Source: Candidatus Geocrenenecus dongiae | GTDB taxonomy: Archaea > Thermoproteota > Nitrososphaeria_A > Caldarchaeales > Wolframiiraptoraceae | DNA: 64,000 nt | NCBI GenBank assembly: GCA_023267855.1 | Contig: JALNLN010000001.1 | Span: forward strand, 23,620 to 87,619 | Direction: 5' to 3' | Shown: positions 1,154 through 55,614 of the stretch, piece by piece | Layout of the letters: the number at the start of each line of letters is the position of its first letter | Numbering within the stretch: position 1 is the first letter of the stretch | Notes under the pieces: model-generated | Database searches by the model: none | What the model saw: the letters and a program-made list of their open reading frames with translations, nothing else | Told to the model about the DNA's origin: nothing | Made by a program: the position numbers and the translations under genes

Positions 1154-2701
1154 ATGTATTCTCAGTATTTTATAGGTGTTGATATAGGGACTGCGGGAAC
1201 GAAAGCATCTATATTTGATGTTGAAGGAAGACAGTTAGCTGTAGCTTACGAAGAGTCTAAGCTTTACTATCCTAGAGTTGGCTGGGTTGAGCAAAATCCA
1301 GAAGATTTCTATTTGTCTACTCTAAATACTGTTAGAGAAGTTGTTAAGAAATCTGGTATAGATCCTCGTGAAGTTGCTTCAATAGCTTTTAGCGGACAGA
1401 TGGCTGGGATACTAGCAATAGATAAAGACTGGAAGCCCGTCATGCCGTATGATTCATGGCTAGATATAAGATGCAAAGAATATATCGACTACCTGAAGAT
1501 GAACTATGAAGAATTTCTTATTGAGAAAACCGGTGCTCCTCCCACTGTTGATCATCTTCCAAAGATGATGTGGTGGAAGAATGAGAGACCAGAAGTTTTT
1601 GAAAGAGTATGTAAGTTCACTGTTCCAGCTGTTTATGTAGCCGGTAGGTTAGCTAAGTTAAAGGGTGAAGATGCATTCTATGATTATACGTACGTAACAT
1701 TTACAGGACTTTTCGACATACATAAGATGGATTGGTCTGAAGAACTTGCAGAAACATTTAAACTTCCATTAGATAAAATGCCAAGAATAGTTAAACCATG
1801 GGAGGTTATTGGAGAATTATCTTCAGAAGAAGCTGAGAAGATGGGTTTGGTGAAAGGCATACCAATAGTTGCTGGAGCTGGAGATGGAATGGCATGTACC
1901 TTCGGTGCAGGATTAACAAAAACAGGTTTATGCTTAGATATAGCTGGAACAGCTTCAGCTTTCTATGTTTCGATAGATAGGGTAGTTCCAGACACAAAAT
2001 ATAGGACTCTACTATACTTAAAGTCAGTTGTACCCGAACTTTGGTGTGTTGGTGCTTACATAAATGGTGGTGGATTATGTTTAAGATGGTTTAGAGATGA
2101 AATTGCAAAAGAAGAGAAGAATAGAGCAAGAGAACTAGGTAAAGATCCGTATGAGATTTTAGATGAAGAAGCTTCTAAGATCCCTCCTGGAAGTGAGGGT
2201 CTAATGTTTATACCGCATCTAGGAGGTAGAGCGTATCCATATAATCCAAGAATTAGAGGTATGTGGATTGGGTTCACATGGAGACATACGGTAGGACATT
2301 TCTTCAAATCTATACTTGAAGCAATAGCATTTGAGTATAATCACTATCTCAAGATACTGAGAGAATTATTGAGAGAGGTAACAATAGGTGAGGTGAGGGG
2401 AATCGGTGGTGGGAGTAAGAGTAAGATATGGAATCAAATTAAAGCAGATGTACTCGGTATACCGTACGTTCTACTAAACAGAGAAGAATATGCTGTAACG
2501 GCATTAGCTGTTATAGGTGGGTATGGTGTTAAGATTTTAAAAGATTACATAAAGACTATTAACGAGTGGGTTAGAGAATCTAAAAGAATACAGCCCAATC
2601 TAGAGATACATGAGAAATACAAGAGATATTCAGAATTTTACGAAAAATTAATTAGCAATATAGACCATCTCATGGAAGGACATGAAACCTTACTCCAGTG
2701 A
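1154..2701 (+). CDS. FGGY-family carbohydrate kinase (xylulokinase/glycerol kinase-like)
   Basis: The N-terminus FIGVDIGTAGTKASIFD matches the FGGY N-terminal motif and the length (515 aa) fits. The sugar substrate is not determinable from sequence. Confidence 0.85.
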   Translation: MYSQYFIGVDIGTAGTKASIFDVEGRQLAVAYEESKLYYPRVGWVEQNPEDFYLSTLNTVREVVKKSGIDPREVASIAFSGQMAGILAIDKDWKPVMPYDSWLDIRCKEYIDYLKMNYEEFLIEKTGAPPTVDHLPKMMWWKNERPEVFERVCKFTVPAVYVAGRLAKLKGEDAFYDYTYVTFTGLFDIHKMDWSEELAETFKLPLDKMPRIVKPWEVIGELSSEEAEKMGLVKGIPIVAGAGDGMACTFGAGLTKTGLCLDIAGTASAFYVSIDRVVPDTKYRTLLYLKSVVPELWCVGAYINGGGLCLRWFRDEIAKEEKNRARELGKDPYEILDEEASKIPPGSEGLMFIPHLGGRAYPYNPRIRGMWIGFTWRHTVGHFFKSILEAIAFEYNHYLKILRELLREVTIGEVRGIGGGSKSKIWNQIKADVLGIPYVLLNREEYAVTALAVIGGYGVKILKDYIKTINEWVRESKRIQPNLEIHEKYKRYSEFYEKLISNIDHLMEGHETLLQ

Positions 2702-2784
2702 TGAAAATCGTTAAAAGCCTGAAATTCATAGTTACAAGTTAATTCGTAATCCTAATATAGAGTACGGTACTTCAAAAGTTTGAA

Positions 2785-4638
2785 ATGGATTCGCAGAAGA
2801 AGTTGTACGGATATAATGGTAAGATAGCCCGCATCAACCTCTCAAAGAAAAAGATCTCTATTGAAGAAATTCCAAAGGAATGGTTAAAGAAATATCTTGG
2901 GGGAAGAGGGTTGGCTGCAAGATATTACTATGAAGAACTAGACCCCTCAGTGCAACCATTTTCACCAGAGAATGAGTTAATTATCATGACGGGGCCATTA
3001 ACGGGTACAGGTGTTTGGGGTTCTTCTAAAGCCCACATCGTTACTAAATCACCATTAACAAACATTTACACTGTATCTAACGCTGGTGGAGATTTTGGAG
3101 CAAATATTAAAAGAGCTGGTTACGATGGGTTGATAATAGAAGGCAGAGCAGATAAACCAAGCTATATATCGATAATCGATGGTGAAATAGAAATAAAGAA
3201 TGCTGAGAAATTCTGGGGATTAAAGACTAGTGAAGCTCAGAAAGCACTCTTAGAAGAAATTGGTGAAAAGAAGGCTACAGTTGCATGCATAGGTCCTGCT
3301 GGAGAAAAACTCTCGAGGATAGCAAGTGTCCAAGTAGATTTCCCCGGAGTGAAGAGAGGTGGAAGTTTCGGAAGAGGTGGTGTTGGAGCAGTTATGGGGT
3401 CAAAGAATCTTAAAGGTATTCTTGTCTATGGATCTAAAGAAGTTGAGATAGCTGAACCAGATAAGCTCATAGAATACCTAAGAGCTAACATTAGTCTACT
3501 CAAAGAAACAACCGGATTTCATACAAAGTATGGAACCGCACAGTATATAGATCCACTTTACGAGCTAGGCGCCTATCCATTAATGAATTTTACTAGGACA
3601 CGTGTAGAGGGGGATGAGATCTCTAAACTTTCATCAAAAGTTTTTAGGGAAGAATTTGTTGCAAAAGATGTAGCATGTTTTAGATGTCCTGTCGCATGCG
3701 GTAAGTATGCAAGACCCCGTAAAGATGTCTACACAAATTTTGTAAGTAAGCCTGAATACGAGACGATCTGGTCCTTCGGCCCACACTGTGGTGTCTTTGA
3801 TTATGATATAATAATTGCAGCAAACCATCTAGCAGATGATGAAGGCTTAGACGGTATATCAGCAGGCTATGTAATCGGATTCAGTATGGAACTTTATGAA
3901 AGAGGTATTATTGATAAAGATGATGTAGGTGGATTAGATCTAAAGTTCGGTAATGGTGAAGCAGTGGTAGAGTTAACAGAGATGATTGGGGAAAGAAGAA
4001 ACTTTGGAAACATCTTAGCTGAAGGAGCTGCTAGAGCCGCTAAAGCTATTGGTAAAGGAGCTGAATACTATGCAATGCATGTAAAAGGTATGGAGCTTAC
4101 AGCATATGAGCCTAGAGCATTTTATGGTATGGGTTTAGCGTTTGCGACATCTTCTCGTGGAGCTTGCCATAATGTTGGTGGATGGACTATTAGAGATGAA
4201 CTACTAAAACCTAAAATAGATAGATATGCAGTGAAGGGGAAAGGCGTACTGGTAAAAACCATACAAGACGTTAGAGGTTATGTTGATTCCATAGGTCTTT
4301 GCACCATACCGAGAAGATCTTTAAACTTTACAGATACTCCGAAGCCCGATGTATTAAAGTATGTAACAGGAATAGAATTAGATGAAGACTTGGTAACAAT
4401 AGGTGAGAGAGTATACTGTCTTGAACGATTAATCTTAAATAGAGAAGGAGTAACACGTAAAGATGATCAGCTTCCACAGAGACTTATGAAAGAACCTATT
4501 CCAGACGGTCCAGCTAAAGGTCACGTTCTTTCACCGGAAATATTCAACAGCATGTTAGACGAATACTATGATGCTAGAAGATGGACTAGAGACGGTATAG
4601 TGACTCAAGATATAAAACTTACCTTAAACATACCTTAA
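2785..4638 (+). CDS. aor: Tungsten-containing aldehyde:ferredoxin oxidoreductase family protein (AOR/FOR/GAPOR family)
   Basis: The N-terminus YGYNGKIARINLS...LGGRGLAARYYYEELDP...PENELIIMTGPLTGT closely follows the AOR family N-terminal domain. At 617 aa it is AOR/FOR-sized. Which family member it is cannot be told from sequence. Confidence 0.85.
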   Translation: MDSQKKLYGYNGKIARINLSKKKISIEEIPKEWLKKYLGGRGLAARYYYEELDPSVQPFSPENELIIMTGPLTGTGVWGSSKAHIVTKSPLTNIYTVSNAGGDFGANIKRAGYDGLIIEGRADKPSYISIIDGEIEIKNAEKFWGLKTSEAQKALLEEIGEKKATVACIGPAGEKLSRIASVQVDFPGVKRGGSFGRGGVGAVMGSKNLKGILVYGSKEVEIAEPDKLIEYLRANISLLKETTGFHTKYGTAQYIDPLYELGAYPLMNFTRTRVEGDEISKLSSKVFREEFVAKDVACFRCPVACGKYARPRKDVYTNFVSKPEYETIWSFGPHCGVFDYDIIIAANHLADDEGLDGISAGYVIGFSMELYERGIIDKDDVGGLDLKFGNGEAVVELTEMIGERRNFGNILAEGAARAAKAIGKGAEYYAMHVKGMELTAYEPRAFYGMGLAFATSSRGACHNVGGWTIRDELLKPKIDRYAVKGKGVLVKTIQDVRGYVDSIGLCTIPRRSLNFTDTPKPDVLKYVTGIELDEDLVTIGERVYCLERLILNREGVTRKDDQLPQRLMKEPIPDGPAKGHVLSPEIFNSMLDEYYDARRWTRDGIVTQDIKLTLNIP

Positions 4639-6384: not shown

Positions 6385-7410
6385 TTACTTTAATGGAAGT
6401 GTAACAGGTTTATTAGTTCTTATTGATTCTATGGCAGCTAATACCATTTCTAAAGCTTTCCTTCCATCTTCTCCAGTTACTTCCGGTTCTTTATCTTCAA
6501 TTATTGCTTTTAAGAAGCTTTCAGCTTCATTAATGTATCCTTCACGGAATCTATCTCTCCAACTTGGGAATGTTTCTGTAATTGCTTTCTTATCACTTTT
6601 ACATACTAGGAGGCTGCCTCCTCTTATATCTCCAACTGTTATAAGACCTTCTGTTCCAAGTACTTCTATTCTTGCATCATAACCATAACCTACTGGGCAT
6701 CCTCCATCTACTACACCTATTCCATTATTCTCAAATCTGATTACACTAACGTATACGTCATGATATGTAGGATACTCTTTCTTGAAATCGGGGTTTATCA
6801 ATGCATCTGCTTCAGCATACACCATTTTAGCTTCACTACCCATAAACCATCTAATAGTATCAAAATCATGACTACTTACTTCTGCTATCATACCTATGCC
6901 AGTCTTAGGATCTAAAGCCCATTTAGGTGGTAAGCCAGGCCCTCTCGTAAGACTCTTCACCAACACAATTCTTCCCACAAGCCCTTCCATTATCAATGTT
7001 TTAACTTTCCTTATTTCTGGATCAAATCTTCTCATAAAACCAATCTGCAACTTTACGTTATTCTTCTTGGTTACTGAGATCATTTTATCTGCTTCCTCTA
7101 AACTTAAAGCCATAGGTTTTTCACAAAAAACATGCGCGCCTGCTTCTGCTGCTTCTATAGTTAATGGACAATGGGTAAATGTTGGAGTAGTTATGAATAC
7201 AGCTTCTATTTCTTCATTCTTTAAAGCTTCACTTAAAGTCTGATAACAGTGAACTCCTCCAATCTTTTCTGAAAGCTGTTTAGCGAGACCTAAATCCATA
7301 TCTACTATCGCTACAAGCTCAGCTATAGGAATCCTTCTAGAAAGATTTAATACGTGAACTTCTCCTGCACGTCCAGCTCCAACAACACAAACTTTAACAC
7401 GTCTAACCAT
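6385..7410 (-). CDS. Gfo/Idh/MocA-family NAD(P)-dependent oxidoreductase
   Basis: An N-terminal Rossmann fold (KVCVVGAGRAGEVH) and the EKP motif (CEKPMALS) are typical of the Gfo/Idh/MocA family. Confidence 0.8.
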   Translation of the reverse strand: MVRRVKVCVVGAGRAGEVHVLNLSRRIPIAELVAIVDMDLGLAKQLSEKIGGVHCYQTLSEALKNEEIEAVFITTPTFTHCPLTIEAAEAGAHVFCEKPMALSLEEADKMISVTKKNNVKLQIGFMRRFDPEIRKVKTLIMEGLVGRIVLVKSLTRGPGLPPKWALDPKTGIGMIAEVSSHDFDTIRWFMGSEAKMVYAEADALINPDFKKEYPTYHDVYVSVIRFENNGIGVVDGGCPVGYGYDARIEVLGTEGLITVGDIRGGSLLVCKSDKKAITETFPSWRDRFREGYINEAESFLKAIIEDKEPEVTGEDGRKALEMVLAAIESIRTNKPVTLPLK

Positions 7411-8869: not shown

Positions 8870-9532
8870 CTATTCTTTGGGATTTCGTTTAGGATGTGGT
8901 AGCATTGTTTTTAAAACTCCTTTCATACCACTTGTTTTATAGATGCTGAATAGTTTCTCCCAATCCACCTTAAATAATAATACGCTTATCCCAATCATTA
9001 GAATAACTGAAGATATTATTGTGTAAATGTTTATTTCTGCTCCAAGGTAGTCTCTCAGTATGTAGAAGTATGTTTTACCTAGAACTGCGACTAGTATAGA
9101 AAGTAAGATTTTTCCTAAAGCGTTTGCAAACATAAATTTTATGAAATTCATTTTGGCGAAACCTAGAGGTACGTATATTACATCGTCAGGAAGAGGAGTT
9201 AAGGCGAATAGGAATACTGCTATGGTACCATATTTATTTACATATCTTGCGATTAGAGTGAGGCTACCATCTTTCTTTTTCAAGATCTTTCTTCCAGCAA
9301 GACCTAGAAGGTAGGAGGTTATTTTCCCAATTGCTGCACCTAAACCAGAAAAGATTCCTAGAAGTATTGGGTTGAATCTATCCGCTAATAATACGATCGG
9401 TATTAGGTAGGGGAGAGGGAGGAAAGGGATCAAACTTCCAGCGAGAGATATTATGAATGCTCCTAGATAGGCATGTTTTAAGACAATTGCTATAAACTCT
9501 GATAACCATTGAAGATCCATCTTTTCTGGCAT
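8870..9532 (-). CDS. DedA/VTT-domain (SNARE-associated) integral membrane protein
   Basis: It is a multi-TM protein whose PFLP...LLGIFSGLGAAIGKITSYLLG pattern resembles DedA family proteins. Confidence 0.55.
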   Translation of the reverse strand: MPEKMDLQWLSEFIAIVLKHAYLGAFIISLAGSLIPFLPLPYLIPIVLLADRFNPILLGIFSGLGAAIGKITSYLLGLAGRKILKKKDGSLTLIARYVNKYGTIAVFLFALTPLPDDVIYVPLGFAKMNFIKFMFANALGKILLSILVAVLGKTYFYILRDYLGAEINIYTIISSVILMIGISVLLFKVDWEKLFSIYKTSGMKGVLKTMLPHPKRNPKE

Positions 9533-9690: not shown

Positions 9691-11688
9691 ATGGGGGAGA
9701 GCCCCTCAGATAATGGATTAATTAAACGGCAGCAGGAAAGGTCTAGGGAACAGAAGAATAAACATCGTTTAGGTAAAACTCTTGGACCACTGCAGGACCT
9801 AGAAGAATTTGTATCTCCAGATTGGTGGAAGCAGATATTCAATTCTCTATATCTTAAAACTGATGGAGATGTTGTAAATGATCCAGAGATAACTAAAAAA
9901 GAAGTAGACTTCTTTGTAGATATTCTTGGATTAAAACATGAAGATAGGATACTTGATTTATGTTGTGGTCATGGAAGGCATTCTCTAGAACTAGCTAGGA
10001 GAGGGTTTAAGAATGTTGAAGGATTAGACATCTCCCACTATCTAATTAGAAAAGCTAGAATGGCTGCTGAGAAAGAAGGATTGAAAGTAAAGTTTAGAGA
10101 AGGAGATGCTAGAAAACTTCCATATCCTCCAGATTCTTTTGATGTTGTATTAATTCTTGGAAATAGTTTTGGCTACTTCGAGTCTATTAGAGATGATCTA
10201 CAGGTGTTGAAAGAAGTTAGAAGAGTCTTGAGACCTTGGGGTAAAATATTGATAGATGTTGCAGATGGAAGCTATCTTAGAGAGAACTTCCAGAAAAGGT
10301 CTTGGGAGTGGATAGATAAGAGCATGCTTGTATGTCGTGAGAGAAGTCTCTCATCAGATAAACAGAAACTCATATCACGTGAAGTCATAATAAATGTTAA
10401 GAAAGGAGTCGTAGCAGATCAAATATACGCTATAAGACTTTATGATAAAGAGATGCTTAGAGAACTTTTAGAGAAAGCTGGTTTCGTGAATATTACTTTC
10501 CATGGAGAGGTTACGCCAAATTCTAAGAGGATGCAAGACCTCGGGATGATGGAGAAGAGAATCATAGTTACAGCTGTAGCGAAGAAGGATTGGACTGTAG
10601 TTAGGAAGAAAGTTGATCAGAGAAAAACGGTTGTAGCAGTAATACTTGGGGATCCTATGAAAAACGATTACACAAAACCAGGTGGAGTATTTGATGAAGA
10701 TGATTTCTACACTATAAACAGGTTGATGCAAGCTTTAAGCGAATTGAAGGAATACGAATTCATATACTTAATGAACCATGATACGCTACTCCAAGACTTG
10801 CTTAAACTAAGAAATAAAATAGATCTAGTATTCAATTTATGCGATGAAGGATACTTCAACGATCCTACGAAAGAATCACATGTACCTGCACTTCTCGATA
10901 TACTTGGAATTCCATATACAGGTGCTGGACCAAGATGTCTAGCGTATTGTTATGATAAGAGTCTAGTTAGAGGTATCGCTAGAGAGATGGGGATACCTGT
11001 AGCTAAAGCAGTATTCGTAATGCCTGAAGAAGTAACTGTAAAGATACCTTTCGGGTTTCCAGTAATAGTGAAACCAAACTTTGGAGATAGCAGTTTCGGC
11101 ATCACCTACAAGAATGTAGTTCATAATGAAGAAGAATTACTGAATACTATCTCAGAGCTTAGAGAAAAGTTTAACTATAATAAACCTATCCTGATTGAAG
11201 AGTTCCTTCCTGGAAAAGATCTAACGGTTGGGATAATCGGCAACCCGCCTGAAGACTATCTTGTCTTACCTATCACCGAAGAAGATTATAGTGTTCTACC
11301 AGAAGGTTTACCACATATATGTAGTTATGAAGCTAAGTGGATTCCAAGTTCACCGTACTGGAATATAAGATCTATTCCAGCGAATCTACCACAAGATGTT
11401 AGAGACTACATTATCGAGTGTTGTGTAAAGCTCTTCATTAGACTTGAATGCAGAGATTATGCTAGATTTGATTGGAGACTGGATAGTGAAGGCAATCCTA
11501 GATTGCTTGAAGTAAACCCAAATCCAGGATGGTGCTGGGATGGGCATCTAGCGAAAATGGCCGCTTATGCTGGTATGAGCTACTCGGAGATGCTTAGAGC
11601 TATTTTGAAAGCTGCTGAGAAGAGATTAAAGTTGCAGAAGACACAAATAGAAAGTGTTGAAACAACTGTAAAGCTAACTAACCTCTAA
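9691..11688 (+). CDS. Fusion protein with an N-terminal class I SAM-dependent methyltransferase domain and a C-terminal D-Ala-D-Ala ligase-like ATP-grasp domain
   Basis: Residues about 90-220 carry MTase motif I (ILDLCCGHGRHS) and post-I/II motifs (DVVLILGNSFGY, RVLRPWGKILIDV). Residues about 300-640 carry the Ddl N-terminal/central domain pattern (VAVILGD..KND......DFYTINRLMQAL; IPYTGAGPRCLAYCYDKSLVRGIAREMGIPVAKAV; VIVKPNFGDSSFGIT) and C-terminal ATP-grasp residues (EVNPNPGW). Confidence 0.7.
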   Translation: MGESPSDNGLIKRQQERSREQKNKHRLGKTLGPLQDLEEFVSPDWWKQIFNSLYLKTDGDVVNDPEITKKEVDFFVDILGLKHEDRILDLCCGHGRHSLELARRGFKNVEGLDISHYLIRKARMAAEKEGLKVKFREGDARKLPYPPDSFDVVLILGNSFGYFESIRDDLQVLKEVRRVLRPWGKILIDVADGSYLRENFQKRSWEWIDKSMLVCRERSLSSDKQKLISREVIINVKKGVVADQIYAIRLYDKEMLRELLEKAGFVNITFHGEVTPNSKRMQDLGMMEKRIIVTAVAKKDWTVVRKKVDQRKTVVAVILGDPMKNDYTKPGGVFDEDDFYTINRLMQALSELKEYEFIYLMNHDTLLQDLLKLRNKIDLVFNLCDEGYFNDPTKESHVPALLDILGIPYTGAGPRCLAYCYDKSLVRGIAREMGIPVAKAVFVMPEEVTVKIPFGFPVIVKPNFGDSSFGITYKNVVHNEEELLNTISELREKFNYNKPILIEEFLPGKDLTVGIIGNPPEDYLVLPITEEDYSVLPEGLPHICSYEAKWIPSSPYWNIRSIPANLPQDVRDYIIECCVKLFIRLECRDYARFDWRLDSEGNPRLLEVNPNPGWCWDGHLAKMAAYAGMSYSEMLRAILKAAEKRLKLQKTQIESVETTVKLTNL

Positions 11689-12139
11689 TCATCTTCTTCA
11701 CCTTCTCAATTATTTCCTCACCATATCCTAGCTGCCTCAACCCTTTAATCAACACACTTACATACTGTTCAGAAGGTTTAACAAACCTACCTCTACTACT
11801 TGTCGAAACATATGTTACCGCTTCAACAACACCGATACTCTCAACATCCACTAAAACCTTTCTTCTAGCAAATTGTGAAGGAACACCAACAGCATTATCT
11901 AGCTTAGACATTTGTTCAATACTTAGTTTATAGACAGCTCCATAAACAATAGATTCAGGATCTTCGACTATACTTGCTACACCACCTCTCCAACTTGGAG
12001 AATAAGTATCGAATGAAAGTCTATACCCTCTAAGTAAAGCTTTCATAGGTTCTCCACAATCACCTACAACTTTTTTCAACAAACTTTTATCCATGGCCCA
12101 ACCATAAGCAAAAAACCATACATTATCAACCGTAGACAT
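11678..12139 (-). CDS. Gamma-glutamyl cyclotransferase-like (GGCT/AIG2 family) protein
   Basis: It has the N-terminal VWFFAYGWAM motif (a variant of the YFAYGSNM GGCT signature) and a GGCT-sized 153 aa. Its 3' end overlaps the convergent fusion gene by 11 nt. Confidence 0.6.
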   Translation of the reverse strand: MSTVDNVWFFAYGWAMDKSLLKKVVGDCGEPMKALLRGYRLSFDTYSPSWRGGVASIVEDPESIVYGAVYKLSIEQMSKLDNAVGVPSQFARRKVLVDVESIGVVEAVTYVSTSSRGRFVKPSEQYVSVLIKGLRQLGYGEEIIEKVKKMIRG

Positions 12140-48852: not shown

Positions 48853-48983
48853 ATATCTATTACCATAAAATCTTCAAAGAGATTTTCTCAAAGATTCGAG
48901 AAAAATGGCCTAACACTGAAAATAGAAACATCTACAATCATTATACAATTTATTATAGAGAATAAGAGAAAATGTATTTAGTT

Positions 48984-49186
48984 TGGGGGCGGTGGGATTT
49001 GAACCCACGTTCTCCGGGTTTCCCCTACTAGAAGTAAAAGCTCCAGCACATCTTCATCCCCAATAAAGGGTCTAGATTGTTGAAATCTTGTAAGCGCTGG
49101 AGCCCGGCGCCGTAGACCTTCAGCCTTTTATCTTCCTGTTTGATCCCCCTCCCTACTCTTTATTTAGGAGTCTGGGCCACGCCCCC
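48984..49186 (-). tRNA. tRNA-Trp (anticodon CCA) interrupted by a 77-nt canonical intron and probably a second intron of about 50 nt in the D-loop
   Basis: The acceptor halves GGGGGCG (49186-49180) and CGCCCCC (48991-48985) are perfectly complementary, with discriminator A. The T-arm is GUGGG-UUCAAAU-CCCAC. The anticodon stem CCGGG/CCCGG (49107-49103 and 49018-49014) carries loop CUCCAG|A, with an intron (49020-49096) inserted after position 37. That intron contains GCUGGAG, complementary to the anticodon loop, as expected for a bulge-helix-bulge. About 50 extra nt lie between the D-stem halves. Confidence 0.6.
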
Positions 49187-55479: not shown

Positions 55480-55527
55480 CAAATTATCGAAAACAATTAC
55501 GATCTCCCTAAAGGATGTGGAATGTAG

Positions 55528-55614
55528 TGCCCCGGGCAGGATTTGAACCTGCGACAACCCGGTCTCCACAATTCTTCTTCAGCCGGGCGCTCTCCCAGAC
55601 TGAGCTACCGGGGC
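55528..55614 (-). tRNA. tRNA-Phe (anticodon GAA) with a 13-14-nt canonical-position intron
   Basis: The reverse complement folds as acceptor GCCCCGG/CCGGGGC with discriminator A, D-arm GCUC-AGUCUGGGA-GAGC, anticodon stem CCCGG/CCGGG with loop CUGAAG|A, an intron of about 13-14 nt after position 37 (boundary ambiguous by one A), and T-arm GCAGG-UUCAAAU-CCUGC. Confidence 0.8.

Follow-up and report, generated by a model that had tools for sequence, protein, structure and literature searches.

The stretch of DNA that was analysed (64,000 nucleotides, the window) carries a single gene in which a class I SAM-dependent methyltransferase is joined to a complete Ddl-fold ATP-grasp ligase. The encoded protein was 100% identical to the protein of a Nitrososphaerota archaeon MAG at NCBI, and it belongs to a sharply defined and unusually conserved family without an assigned function. 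Each half comes from a well-understood enzyme class; the family is defined by their combination. The reading that we favour, with a probability of about 0.45, is that the fusion is a self-contained bifunctional enzyme that makes a small molecule with an amide bond and an N-methyl group, possibly a solute. The gene, its parts and its two closest neighbours are as follows:

8870..9532, minus strand: DedA/VTT-domain membrane protein of 220 aa, divergent upstream neighbour (Pfam VTT_dom).
9691..11688, plus strand: methyltransferase::ATP-grasp fusion gene, complete, 665 aa, ATG start, stop TAA at 11686-11688 (ORF list, Pfam/NCBIfam domains, homologues).
9691..9780, plus strand: basic (K/R/Q-rich) N-terminal tail of about 30 residues, predicted to be disordered (pLDDT <50 for residues 1-30).
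9781..10587, plus strand: class I SAM-dependent methyltransferase domain, aa 31-299, with a Rossmann core and a four-beta-strand cap.
10588..10626, plus strand: poorly conserved inter-domain linker of about 13 aa (pLDDT <50 for residues 301-308; low alignment conservation at about 300-312).
10627..11634, plus strand: three-domain Ddl-fold ATP-grasp ligase, aa 313-648 (Pfam, Foldseek, residue comparison).
11635..11685, plus strand: unconserved C-terminal tail, aa 649-665 (pLDDT <50 for residues 651-665; no conservation past aa ~648).
11678..12139, minus strand: GGCT/AIG2-fold protein of 153 aa, convergent neighbour (Pfam AIG2_2 1e-10, GGACT 5e-9).

The sequence-only reading had taken the 665-aa ORF for a class I methyltransferase followed by a whole Ddl-type ligase, and Pfam and Foldseek agreed with this layout. 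Pfam placed Methyltransf_25/11/31 on aa 82-201 (E 1e-20 to 1e-23), with motif I (ILDLCCGHGR) at aa 87-96 (nt 9949-9978), and Dala_Dala_lig_C on aa 432-639 (E 3e-29). The N domain of Ddl, which had also been called recognisable, was recovered by Foldseek, in which complete Ddl structures aligned with the AF2 model's C-terminal half (TM ~0.8, target-normalised); the pTM of the model was 0.56, so that the mutual orientation of the two domains is not reliable. In the family alignment the basic N-termini were rich in gaps and varied in length and sequence up to a conserved LGP..LE..V.PDWW motif. The signature of the ATP-grasp family consisted of NLCDEG (aa 382-387), CYDKS (420-424), KPNFGDSSFGIT (461-472), EEDYS (530-534), YEAKW (546-550), RDYARFDWR (588-596) and NPNPGWCWDGH (609-619), and was common to stand-alone members of the subfamily also. 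The coordinates of the two ORFs bore out the 11-nt 3' overlap noticed between the fusion and its convergent neighbour, and placed it in the fusion's C-terminal tail, which is unconserved and of low confidence.

A frameshift joining two separate genes was ruled out. A comparison of 75 fusion loci was made, comprising the window (WIN) and relatives labelled L001 onwards, and the frame was unbroken in all 74 of the related loci with a complete gene, as it was in thousands of database proteins; the fusion is thus genuine. Full-length orthologues with 62-82% identity were found in at least 592 species from more than 20 phyla, bacterial and archaeal members being about 65-70% identical, and orthologues about 40% identical were found in Monosiga, chytrids and Rozella (full length in the first two). 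The carriers include Asgard archaea, methanogens and many other archaea, as well as eukaryotes; a cultured one is Thermotoga sp. 38H-to. Archaea were polyphyletic in the fusion tree, and the spread of the family, patchy and horizontally transferred, involves transfer between domains. The wide occurrence of a continuous fusion, together with the polyphyly of the archaea, would fit a plug-in trait that works without partners. In plasmid and phage collections no full-length fusion was found, the matches being distant Ddl/Van or stand-alone ATP-grasp proteins; the context of a match on a rhizobial plasmid was uninformative. The architecture had been suspected not to be a described enzyme, and it was indeed without a match in curated NCBIfam models, database protein names and full-text literature. 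None of the orthologues among the database matches carried a functional name, and the main text of a survey of archaeal fusions does not mention this architecture (PMC11237513).

In the ligase half the counterparts of Ddl K97, K144, S150/151, E180, K215, R255, D257, E270, N272 and G276 were all kept, and the ATP, Mg and catalytic residues were invariant in the fusion family. In the methyltransferase half motif I, D113, D139-A140 and the GNSFGYF motif were likewise invariant. No catalytic residue had been lost from either half, and both look catalytically competent, as far as sequence comparison allows this to be judged. The residues that bind D-Ala in E. coli DdlB are the E15/S150/Y216 triad, H63, S281 and L282. 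S150 was kept in the fusion, and Y216, S281, L282 and H63 were replaced by W550, G618, H619 and C384, respectively. A putative pocket of this half would have W550, W557, W595, W614, W616, D385 and E386 as its lining. Because these specificity residues are replaced, the GGxSxE motif of the Ddl N domain is absent, the omega-loop region is longer, and the scores against Ddl and Van models are below cut-off (best NCBIfam Ddl model 135 bits against a cut-off of 243; all Van models far below theirs), the ligase half is not a Ddl. Ddl and Van ligases share with it the three-domain ATP-grasp fold, the same ATP-, Mg- and transition-state residues and presumably the acyl-phosphate mechanism; they differ in being only about 25% identical, in their shorter omega-loop, which in the fusion bears the invariant EEDYS, and in hosts, since those of the fusion include archaea and eukaryotes without murein and its ligase is joined to a methyltransferase. 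Four cysteines (C384, C420, C544, C615) were invariant in the fused clade; in the wider ATP-grasp subfamily C384 was invariant and C420 nearly so. The idea that these four form a metal or Fe-S site was considered and dropped, C544 and C615 being variable in the stand-alone relatives.

The nearest kin of the methyltransferase half were N-methyltransferases of primary amines (NmbA, CypM, CgnL, GSMT, DesVI). The amine N-methyltransferases with a four-strand cap, namely NmbA, CypM, YunM, CgnL, GSMT, DesVI and CcbJ, were about 16-33% identical to it, and its best PDB sequence match was the bacillithiol N-methyltransferase NmbA (PDB 9RI2; ~33% identity over 225 aa), which matches it in fold and type of cap. 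NmbA has a narrow basket formed by the four-strand cap, and its authors' network clusters proteins at 35-95% identity (PMC12719100), a range just above the ~33% of the fusion. Unlike the NmbA group, the fusion family carries the cap residues WEW, RER and LISRE and has its methyltransferase covalently joined to a ligase.

Relatives of the ATP-grasp half were found fused or adjacent to SET domains, which are known protein-lysine methyltransferases. These ATP-grasp::SET proteins are paralleled by TTLL12, in which a methyltransferase-type (SET-like) domain and an ATP-grasp ligase occur in one protein; TTLL12 differs from the fusion in that its ATP-grasp is TTL-type, not Ddl-type, and it is eukaryote-specific, and according to the abstract neither activity was demonstrated for it (PMC3520985). 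Stand-alone relatives adjoined proteins with FGE-sulfatase domains, whose best NCBIfam matches were EgtB, SenA and OvoA, all far below threshold (90 bits against EgtB/OvoA cut-offs of 360); an EgtB-like role for these neighbours is only a lead. A stand-alone homologue, 53-54% identical, lay in a murD-ftsW-murG cluster (L081), and a CitMHS permease directly followed a stand-alone homologue that also had Kef/TrkA antiporters after it.

To survey the neighbourhoods of the 75 loci, 984 neighbouring ORFs were clustered and Pfam was run on the 135 immediate neighbours; neither set contained a neighbour family conserved across phyla. The weak associations that recurred were with membrane or transport genes, each at fewer than 10% of the loci. 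Among them were a DUF5698-DUF2179 membrane protein within 4.1 kb of the fusion (7 of 75 loci, at least six phyla), a CitMHS permease (five archaeal loci), MscS and CorA; the literature on DUF2179 contained no description of the fusion architecture. Two loci (L010 and L028) combined an extra class I methyltransferase with a wHTH regulator, CitMHS and MFS, and the sole recurrent small ORF beside the fusion, of 75 aa, was that same wHTH regulator. In Planctomycetota the fusion directly followed trmD in the ffh-rpsP-trmD cluster, with a stop/start overlap in three loci, a gene order that hints at a translation-linked role. In Atribacterota a canonical ddl adjoined the fusion in two loci; mur genes were absent from the immediate neighbours. 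In the window itself the divergent DedA gene is separated from the fusion by 158 nt, and downstream lie genes for a Bmp/PnrA-like ABC binding protein, an ABC ATPase and two permeases. The DedA protein and the ABC importer are thus present where the sequence-only reading had put them, but not as conserved neighbours: the DedA cluster (c15) adjoined the fusion only in the window, L001 and L002, with a fourth member about 3.5 kb away in L069.

Upstream of the bacterial orthologues Rfam revealed no riboswitch or other known RNA at 19 loci, and the RNA search of the window returned tRNAs only. A scan for Sigma-70 promoters and terminators gave counts no higher than the shuffled expectation, under a bacterial-type model that is not applicable to an archaeon. 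Two further candidates were rejected. A graspetide/RiPP system was set aside with the ligase being Ddl-type, not RimK/microviridin-type, and with no room for a small precursor ORF in the window, where the fusion has the 158-nt divergent spacer on one side and the overlapping gene on the other; for anti-phage defence, PADLOC gave one generic methyltransferase-domain match to mad2 and no defence neighbourhood.

In the mechanism that we propose, the ATP-grasp half would bind ATP-Mg and phosphorylate the carboxylate of one substrate to an acyl-phosphate, which an amine substrate would attack with formation of an amide bond; this would be Ddl-type chemistry on substrates other than D-Ala and D-Ala. 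With SAM, the methyltransferase half would then N-methylate a primary amine of the product or of its precursor, in the simplest case a free alpha-amino group. Such an enzyme would form, from common metabolites and without dedicated partner genes, an N-methylated compound of the dipeptide-like or aminoacyl-amine type. Because permeases, channels and small membrane proteins turn up sporadically near the fusion, each at fewer than 10% of the loci, an accumulated or exchanged solute with a role in osmotic or ionic homeostasis may be suggested. The small-molecule, as opposed to protein, substrate, the N-methylation, the order of the steps and the physiological role are what we infer from these comparisons. 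A comparable division of labour is found in Ngg of N-acetylglutaminylglutamine amide synthesis, which combines a GNAT with an ATP-grasp, and in carnosine synthase, which together with carnosine N-methyltransferase leads to anserine. In these systems, as in the proposed fusion, ATP-grasp amide ligation and group-transfer tailoring lead to a small modified dipeptide with the function of a solute or buffer (for anserine, PMC3660329); the ATP-grasp subfamilies and the tailoring domains are different, and the likeness is mechanistic only, no relationship in sequence having been found beyond that of the superfamily.

The sequence-only reading had instead joined the fusion with its convergent neighbour in one module, in which the fusion would make a methylated gamma-glutamyl or isopeptide compound, the GGCT-like enzyme would turn it over and the antisense overlap would regulate the genes. 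The neighbour does have the AIG2_2/GGACT fold that had been recognised (human GGCT in the PDB matched it at 9e-8), and the window, L001 and L002 all have the two genes side by side in convergent orientation. These close relatives are, however, the only 3 of 75 loci with this adjacency, jackhmmer having found no GGCT-like gene within +/-8 kb of the fusion in the other ~72, where the fusion mostly stands alone among unrelated neighbours. The overlap is replaced by gaps of +38 nt in L001 and +18 nt in L002. In addition, all three archaeal orthologues have Val84 in the place of E98, the catalytic Glu in human GGCT (mutated in PDB 2rbh and 3cry), and the YGSN substrate loop reads YGWA; with this Glu replaced, the neighbour would be expected to have no activity on gamma-glutamyl compounds. 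Since the adjacency, the overlap, the catalytic Glu, the DedA gene and the ABC importer are all unconserved, the gamma-glutamyl link comes down to local adjacency; the GGCT-like gene is a lineage-specific neighbour, not a partner or part of a conserved unit, and the module, largely refuted by the comparative context, is very improbable. If the fusion were a divergent D-Ala-D-Ala (or D-Ala-D-X) ligase of cell-wall synthesis, with the methyltransferase as an accessory, this would agree with the Ddl fold and the kept catalytic residues, with the stand-alone homologue in the murD-ftsW-murG cluster and with the ddl genes adjoining the fusion in Atribacterota. In those very genomes, though, the fusion coexists with a canonical Ddl, its D-Ala-binding residues are replaced, it scores below all Ddl/Van cut-offs, and it is carried by murein-free hosts (many archaea, and eukaryotes), the window host being itself a Nitrososphaerota archaeon, so that this reading is barely credible.

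Two other substrates deserve more weight. The fusion may modify a protein or peptide. Its ATP-grasp half would attach an amino acid at a terminus or on a side chain, in the manner of RimK, TTL and LysX, and the methyltransferase would act on an amine (the N-terminus or a lysine) of that target, which may belong to the translation machinery. Docking on a conserved macromolecule would be in keeping with the basic, disordered tail at the N-terminus and with the very high full-length conservation; the trmD linkage and the SET-linked relatives have been described above. Yet fold and sequence are nearest to Ddl-type small-molecule ligases and not to RimK, TTL or LysX, the 75 loci have neither a conserved small ORF nor a candidate target gene beside the fusion, the trmD linkage is limited to one phylum, and an enzyme that modifies a universal protein would not usually show a patchy, horizontally transferred distribution; we find this alternative doubtful. 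The product may also be a low-molecular-weight thiol, or a cysteine compound related to one, made or tailored by a ligase that links a partner to Cys (or gamma-Glu-Cys) and a methyltransferase that N-methylates the cysteinyl amine. The ATP-grasp module of the bifunctional GshF is Ddl-like, and the FGE-sulfatase neighbours of the stand-alone relatives as well as the GGCT/ChaC-fold gene next to the fusion in the window lineage point the same way. So does the rank of NmbA, which acts in this manner on bacillithiol, as the best PDB match, but at an identity of only ~33%, and the NmbA study found BshA/B/C, the bacillithiol pathway, in no archaeon (PMC12719100). The FGE proteins fall far short of the EgtB/OvoA cut-offs, and their family is not among the genes that recur near the fusion in the 75 loci. 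The GGCT-like neighbour is unconserved and without the catalytic Glu, and of the cysteines invariant in the fused clade only C384 is so throughout the subfamily. A thiol product is therefore improbable.

The one-gene small-molecule enzyme is the reading that we favour. Its most specific form, in which a single polypeptide makes an undescribed N-methylated dipeptide-like metabolite (solute, counter-ion or redox buffer), is tentative and on balance unlikely. If true, this metabolite would occur widely among subsurface anaerobes, Asgard and thermophilic archaea, Planctomycetota, Atribacterota, zoosporic fungi and choanoflagellates, and its synthesis would constitute a new, horizontally mobile one-gene pathway common to all three domains of life. 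Many of the carriers belong to uncultured lineages whose small-molecule physiology is essentially unknown (Asgard archaea, Atribacterota, Aminicenantes, Sedimentisphaerales), and the apparent independence of the gene from partners makes it a tractable target. The identity of the product would annotate thousands of entries now named 'methyltransferase domain-containing protein' or, wrongly, 'D-alanine-D-alanine ligase', and would also clear false signals of murein synthesis in archaea.

The fusion gene and its convergent neighbour occupied the following positions in the window:

9691-11688, plus strand: fusion ORF, 665 aa (ORF list)
11678-12139, minus strand: GGCT-like ORF, 153 aa, convergent (ORF list; Pfam AIG2_2 and GGACT)

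Their stop codons were interleaved, 11 nt apart (fusion TAA at 11686-11688; GGCT-like CTA, the minus-strand TAG, at 11678-11680). Class I methyltransferase (MT) models matched aa 82-201 of the fusion (Pfam, E 1e-20 to 1e-23), and Dala_Dala_lig_C matched aa 432-639 (3e-29). The AlphaFold2 model showed a pLDDT of 81, and the entire C-terminal half of the model, together with the N domain, superposed on D-Ala-D-Ala ligase (Ddl) crystal structures with a TM of about 0.8 (relative to the target). The ORF list, Pfam and the model were in agreement with the sequence-only reading, which had described an MT joined to a Ddl-type ATP-grasp ligase and an 11-nt convergent overlap. A VTT/DedA protein was encoded upstream of the fusion, and a Bmp/PnrA-type binding protein, an ABC ATPase and two permeases downstream.

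Window positions 9691-9780 (columns 1-60 of the family alignment, A1) encoded a K/R/Q-rich, predicted disordered N-terminal tail of variable length; such a tail precedes a conserved LGP..LE..V.PDWW motif in all prokaryotic family members. Elsewhere in the window, ARAGORN called a tRNA-Thr (48983-49062, minus strand, anticodon AGT), not reported by Rfam at gathering score, and a tRNA-Ser (55527-55614, minus strand, anticodon AGA read at position 37). Since A34 anticodons are unusual for archaea, both calls may be mis-registered or intron-containing.

The fusion protein was identical to an NCBI protein from a Nitrososphaerota archaeon MAG. The 120 best of 4913 database matches were all full-length fusions (66-81% identity) from Nitrososphaeria, several Asgard lineages, Thermotoga, Synergistetes, WOR-3, Anaerolineae, Actinomycetota and others, named solely "methyltransferase domain-containing protein" or "D-alanine-D-alanine ligase". 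With one genome per GTDB species, at least 592 stretches among the 600 matches listed encoded a relative, and the 80 best loci (62-82% identity) represented more than 20 phyla. The reading frame was unbroken in every locus with a complete gene; the fusion is therefore genuine and not a frameshift artefact. In a 40-sequence alignment the mean column identity was 71%, invariant blocks spanned both domains and their junction, and variability was confined to a linker of about 13 residues. A search with the ligase half alone against 1.8 billion cluster representatives gave fused (600-680 aa) and stand-alone (340-370 aa) proteins at 40-58% identity, as well as eukaryotic fusions from Monosiga brevicollis, the chytrids Synchytrium and Polyrhizophydium, Olpidium, Rozella, and the blastocladiomycetes Blastocladiella, Coelomomyces and Paraphysoderma. 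These eukaryotic proteins, all annotated as hypothetical, shared about 40% identity with the fusion along its entire length and retained the family motifs. The archaeal sequences were split over at least five separate clades of a neighbour-joining tree, with a Thermotogota sequence as sister of the window's clade; the gene has therefore been transferred repeatedly between domains of life. The sequence family already has database entries under generic names, so the gene itself is not new; no description of its function or of the meaning of its architecture was found in the literature, as far as searched.

The ligase half was aligned to E. coli DdlB, with residue roles as described for that enzyme. 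All ATP, Mg and transition-state residues were kept (K423, K461, S467/S468, E503, K549, R592, D594, E607, N609, G613), which is consistent with a predicted Ddl-like amide ligation via an acyl phosphate. The D-Ala-binding residues were replaced (Y216 by W550, S281 by G618, L282 by H619), the N-domain GGxSxE motif was absent and the omega-loop region was longer. In a HMMER alignment to B. anthracis Ddl, C384 (within NLCDEG) lay opposite the His63 equivalent. All NCBIfam Ddl and Van models scored far under their cut-offs (best 135 versus 243 bits). Retained catalytic residues, replaced D-Ala residues and sub-threshold scores together place the ligase half in a distinct ATP-grasp subfamily, with the signature NLCDxG..N, KPN.GD.S.GIT, YEAKW, RDYxRFDWR and NPNPGW also present in stand-alone members. 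The fusion was not classed as a Ddl: it missed the curated cut-offs, and neither its specificity residues nor the biology of its host fit. Two Atribacterota loci carried a canonical ddl (Dala_Dala_lig_N and C, 265 bits) in convergent orientation, some 200 nt beyond the 3′ end of the fusion (L019:3654-4784 and L042:2304-3434, minus strand); both ligases therefore coexist.

Motif I (ILDLCCGHGR), D113, D139-A140 and GNSFGYF were invariant in the MT half (40-sequence alignment). Its top PDB sequence match was 9RI2 (85 bits over aa 44-268, a stretch that takes in the cap domain), the bacillithiol N-methyltransferase NmbA, whose target is the cysteinyl alpha-amine (PMC12719100). The top group comprised 3D2L, 1WZN and 1Y8C, all without assigned function, together with YunM, CgnL, CypM, glycine sarcosine N-methyltransferase, NmbA, DesVI and CcbJ. 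Nearly all of its characterised members N-methylate a primary amine, be it on an amino acid, a peptide N-terminus or an amino sugar, and these members have a four-strand cap in common, as does the predicted model. The MT half thus resembles amine methyltransferases of the NmbA/CypM/GSMT type; the likeness is not enough to file the fusion under NmbA. As read from alignment, not from structural measurements, the arginine-rich cap (R216, R218, R230, R249) would suit carboxylates, and the ligase pocket region, rich in acidic (D385, E386, D391, E395, D466, E531, D532) and aromatic residues (W550, W557, W595, W614, W616), would suit amines.

ORFs were called in 80 loci and the first 22 kb of the window, and the 984 proteins were clustered. 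Neighbour clusters spanned 14 of 76 loci at most; the most frequent (ffh, rpsP, trmD) were all from Planctomycetota, and Pfam on 135 immediate neighbours showed TrmD in eight and every other family in at most three. Flanking genes were often on the opposite strand, and the fusion gene looks monocistronic. The sole neighbour recurring across phyla was a UPF0316-like membrane protein of about 200 aa (DUF5698-DUF2179), itself uncharacterised in the literature searched. In 7 of 75 loci, drawn from at least six phyla, it lay no more than 4.1 kb from the fusion, against well under one case expected by chance at one gene per genome (our estimate). Locus positions (L081 and L083-L086, loci with relatives of the ligase half; the others, related fusion loci) were:

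L027:7084-7689, L049:2019-2600, L068:131-721, L074:5480-6103, L032:12544-13146, L052:3369-3878, L075:3289-3867: DUF5698-DUF2179 copies
L010:2240-4511, L028:4611-7530: same-strand string with a second methyltransferase of 262-264 aa
L021, L030, L033, L041, L053, L055, L060, L066: trmD-linked loci, fusion at about 8000 in 17-kb loci
L083:4177-7032, L084:284-1752, L086:5276-8125; L085:6387-9156: FGE-sulfatase-SET-ATP-grasp operons and ATP-grasp::SET contig, listed jointly
L081:2025-10969: murD-ftsW-murG-[homologue] cluster

Five archaeal loci carried CitMHS/ArsB-type permeases, in some cases flanking the fusion on either side; one such permease also stood immediately 3′ of a stand-alone homologue, with two Kef/TrkA-type antiporters after it. 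In L010 and L028, two related archaeal MAGs labelled Halobacteria, the order was fusion, 75-aa wHTH regulator, second class I MT and CitMHS; L010 stops inside the CitMHS gene, and an MFS fragment follows in L028. An MscS channel lay 3′ of the fusion in L024, and CorA, AstE/AspA and asd each occurred in two to four loci. These cross-locus associations are weak but recurrent. In Planctomycetota (Pirellulales, Phycisphaerae, Sedimentisphaerales) the fusion followed ffh, a 114-aa unknown, rpsP and trmD with a gap of −4 to +39 nt, in the position usually taken by rplS; trmD stop and fusion start overlapped in three loci (e.g., L053, trmD 1272-1964, fusion 1961-3967).

Relatives of the ligase half had other partners. 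A probably eukaryotic contig encoded a separate class I MT, then an ATP-grasp::SET fusion, then a SET fragment, and stand-alone homologues 46-47% identical to the ligase half stood in operons with an FGE-sulfatase-domain protein and a 121-aa SET-domain protein. Pairing of this subfamily with a methyltransferase of some fold is therefore a recurrent theme, and the SET connection may point to methylation of lysine or protein. After the 338-aa homologue in L081 (53-54% identical) came a 458-aa protein, whose MurL-like match was weak, and an 807-aa double ATP-grasp protein, whose Ddl match was sub-threshold; the locus looks like an unusual cell-wall peptide cluster.

The sequence-only reading had proposed a module in which the fusion and the GGCT-like protein would make and turn over a methylated (iso)peptide or aminoacyl compound. 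An iterative profile search of the loci detected the GGCT-like protein only in the window, L001 (Nitrososphaerales; 10040-10495) and L002 (Aigarchaeota; 6556-7032), the latter two with gaps of 38 and 18 nt in place of the overlap, which in the window falls within the C-terminal tail of the fusion, a stretch that is unconserved and modelled with low confidence. The catalytic E98 of human GGCT, the residue altered in mutant entries 2rbh and 3cry, aligned to Val84, invariant in the three archaeal proteins, and the YGSN loop read YGWA. Gamma-glutamyl turnover is therefore left without comparative or catalytic support, and the module as proposed is rejected. The GGCT-like protein of this lineage may lack catalytic activity or act differently from other members of the fold. 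DedA likewise adjoined the fusion in close relatives only (window, L001, L002); in L069 a copy lay farther away.

We favour, with a probability of roughly 0.45, a bifunctional enzyme that is self-contained and acts on small molecules. Its ATP-grasp half would convert a carboxylate to an acyl phosphate and couple it to an amine, and the MT half would N-methylate a primary amine of the product or of a precursor, to give an N-methylated dipeptide-like compound. Ngg, the NAGGN synthase, is a functional analogue that combines tailoring with an ATP-grasp enzyme. The carnosine synthase/carnosine N-methyltransferase pair is another (PMC3660329), and TTLL12 is an architectural analogue (PMC3520985). 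The main alternative is a modifier of proteins or peptides, to which the SET links, the trmD operon, the basic tail and the likeness of the MT half to peptide N-terminal methyltransferases point; we consider it rather unlikely. A thiol-related product, a minor variant, appears improbable. For the N-methylated dipeptide-like compound, the contexts with transporters, channels and regulators tend to favour a solute that takes part in ionic or osmotic balance. The fusion is a clean, tractable and very widely distributed conserved unknown, and it shows no anomaly in mechanism or genetics.
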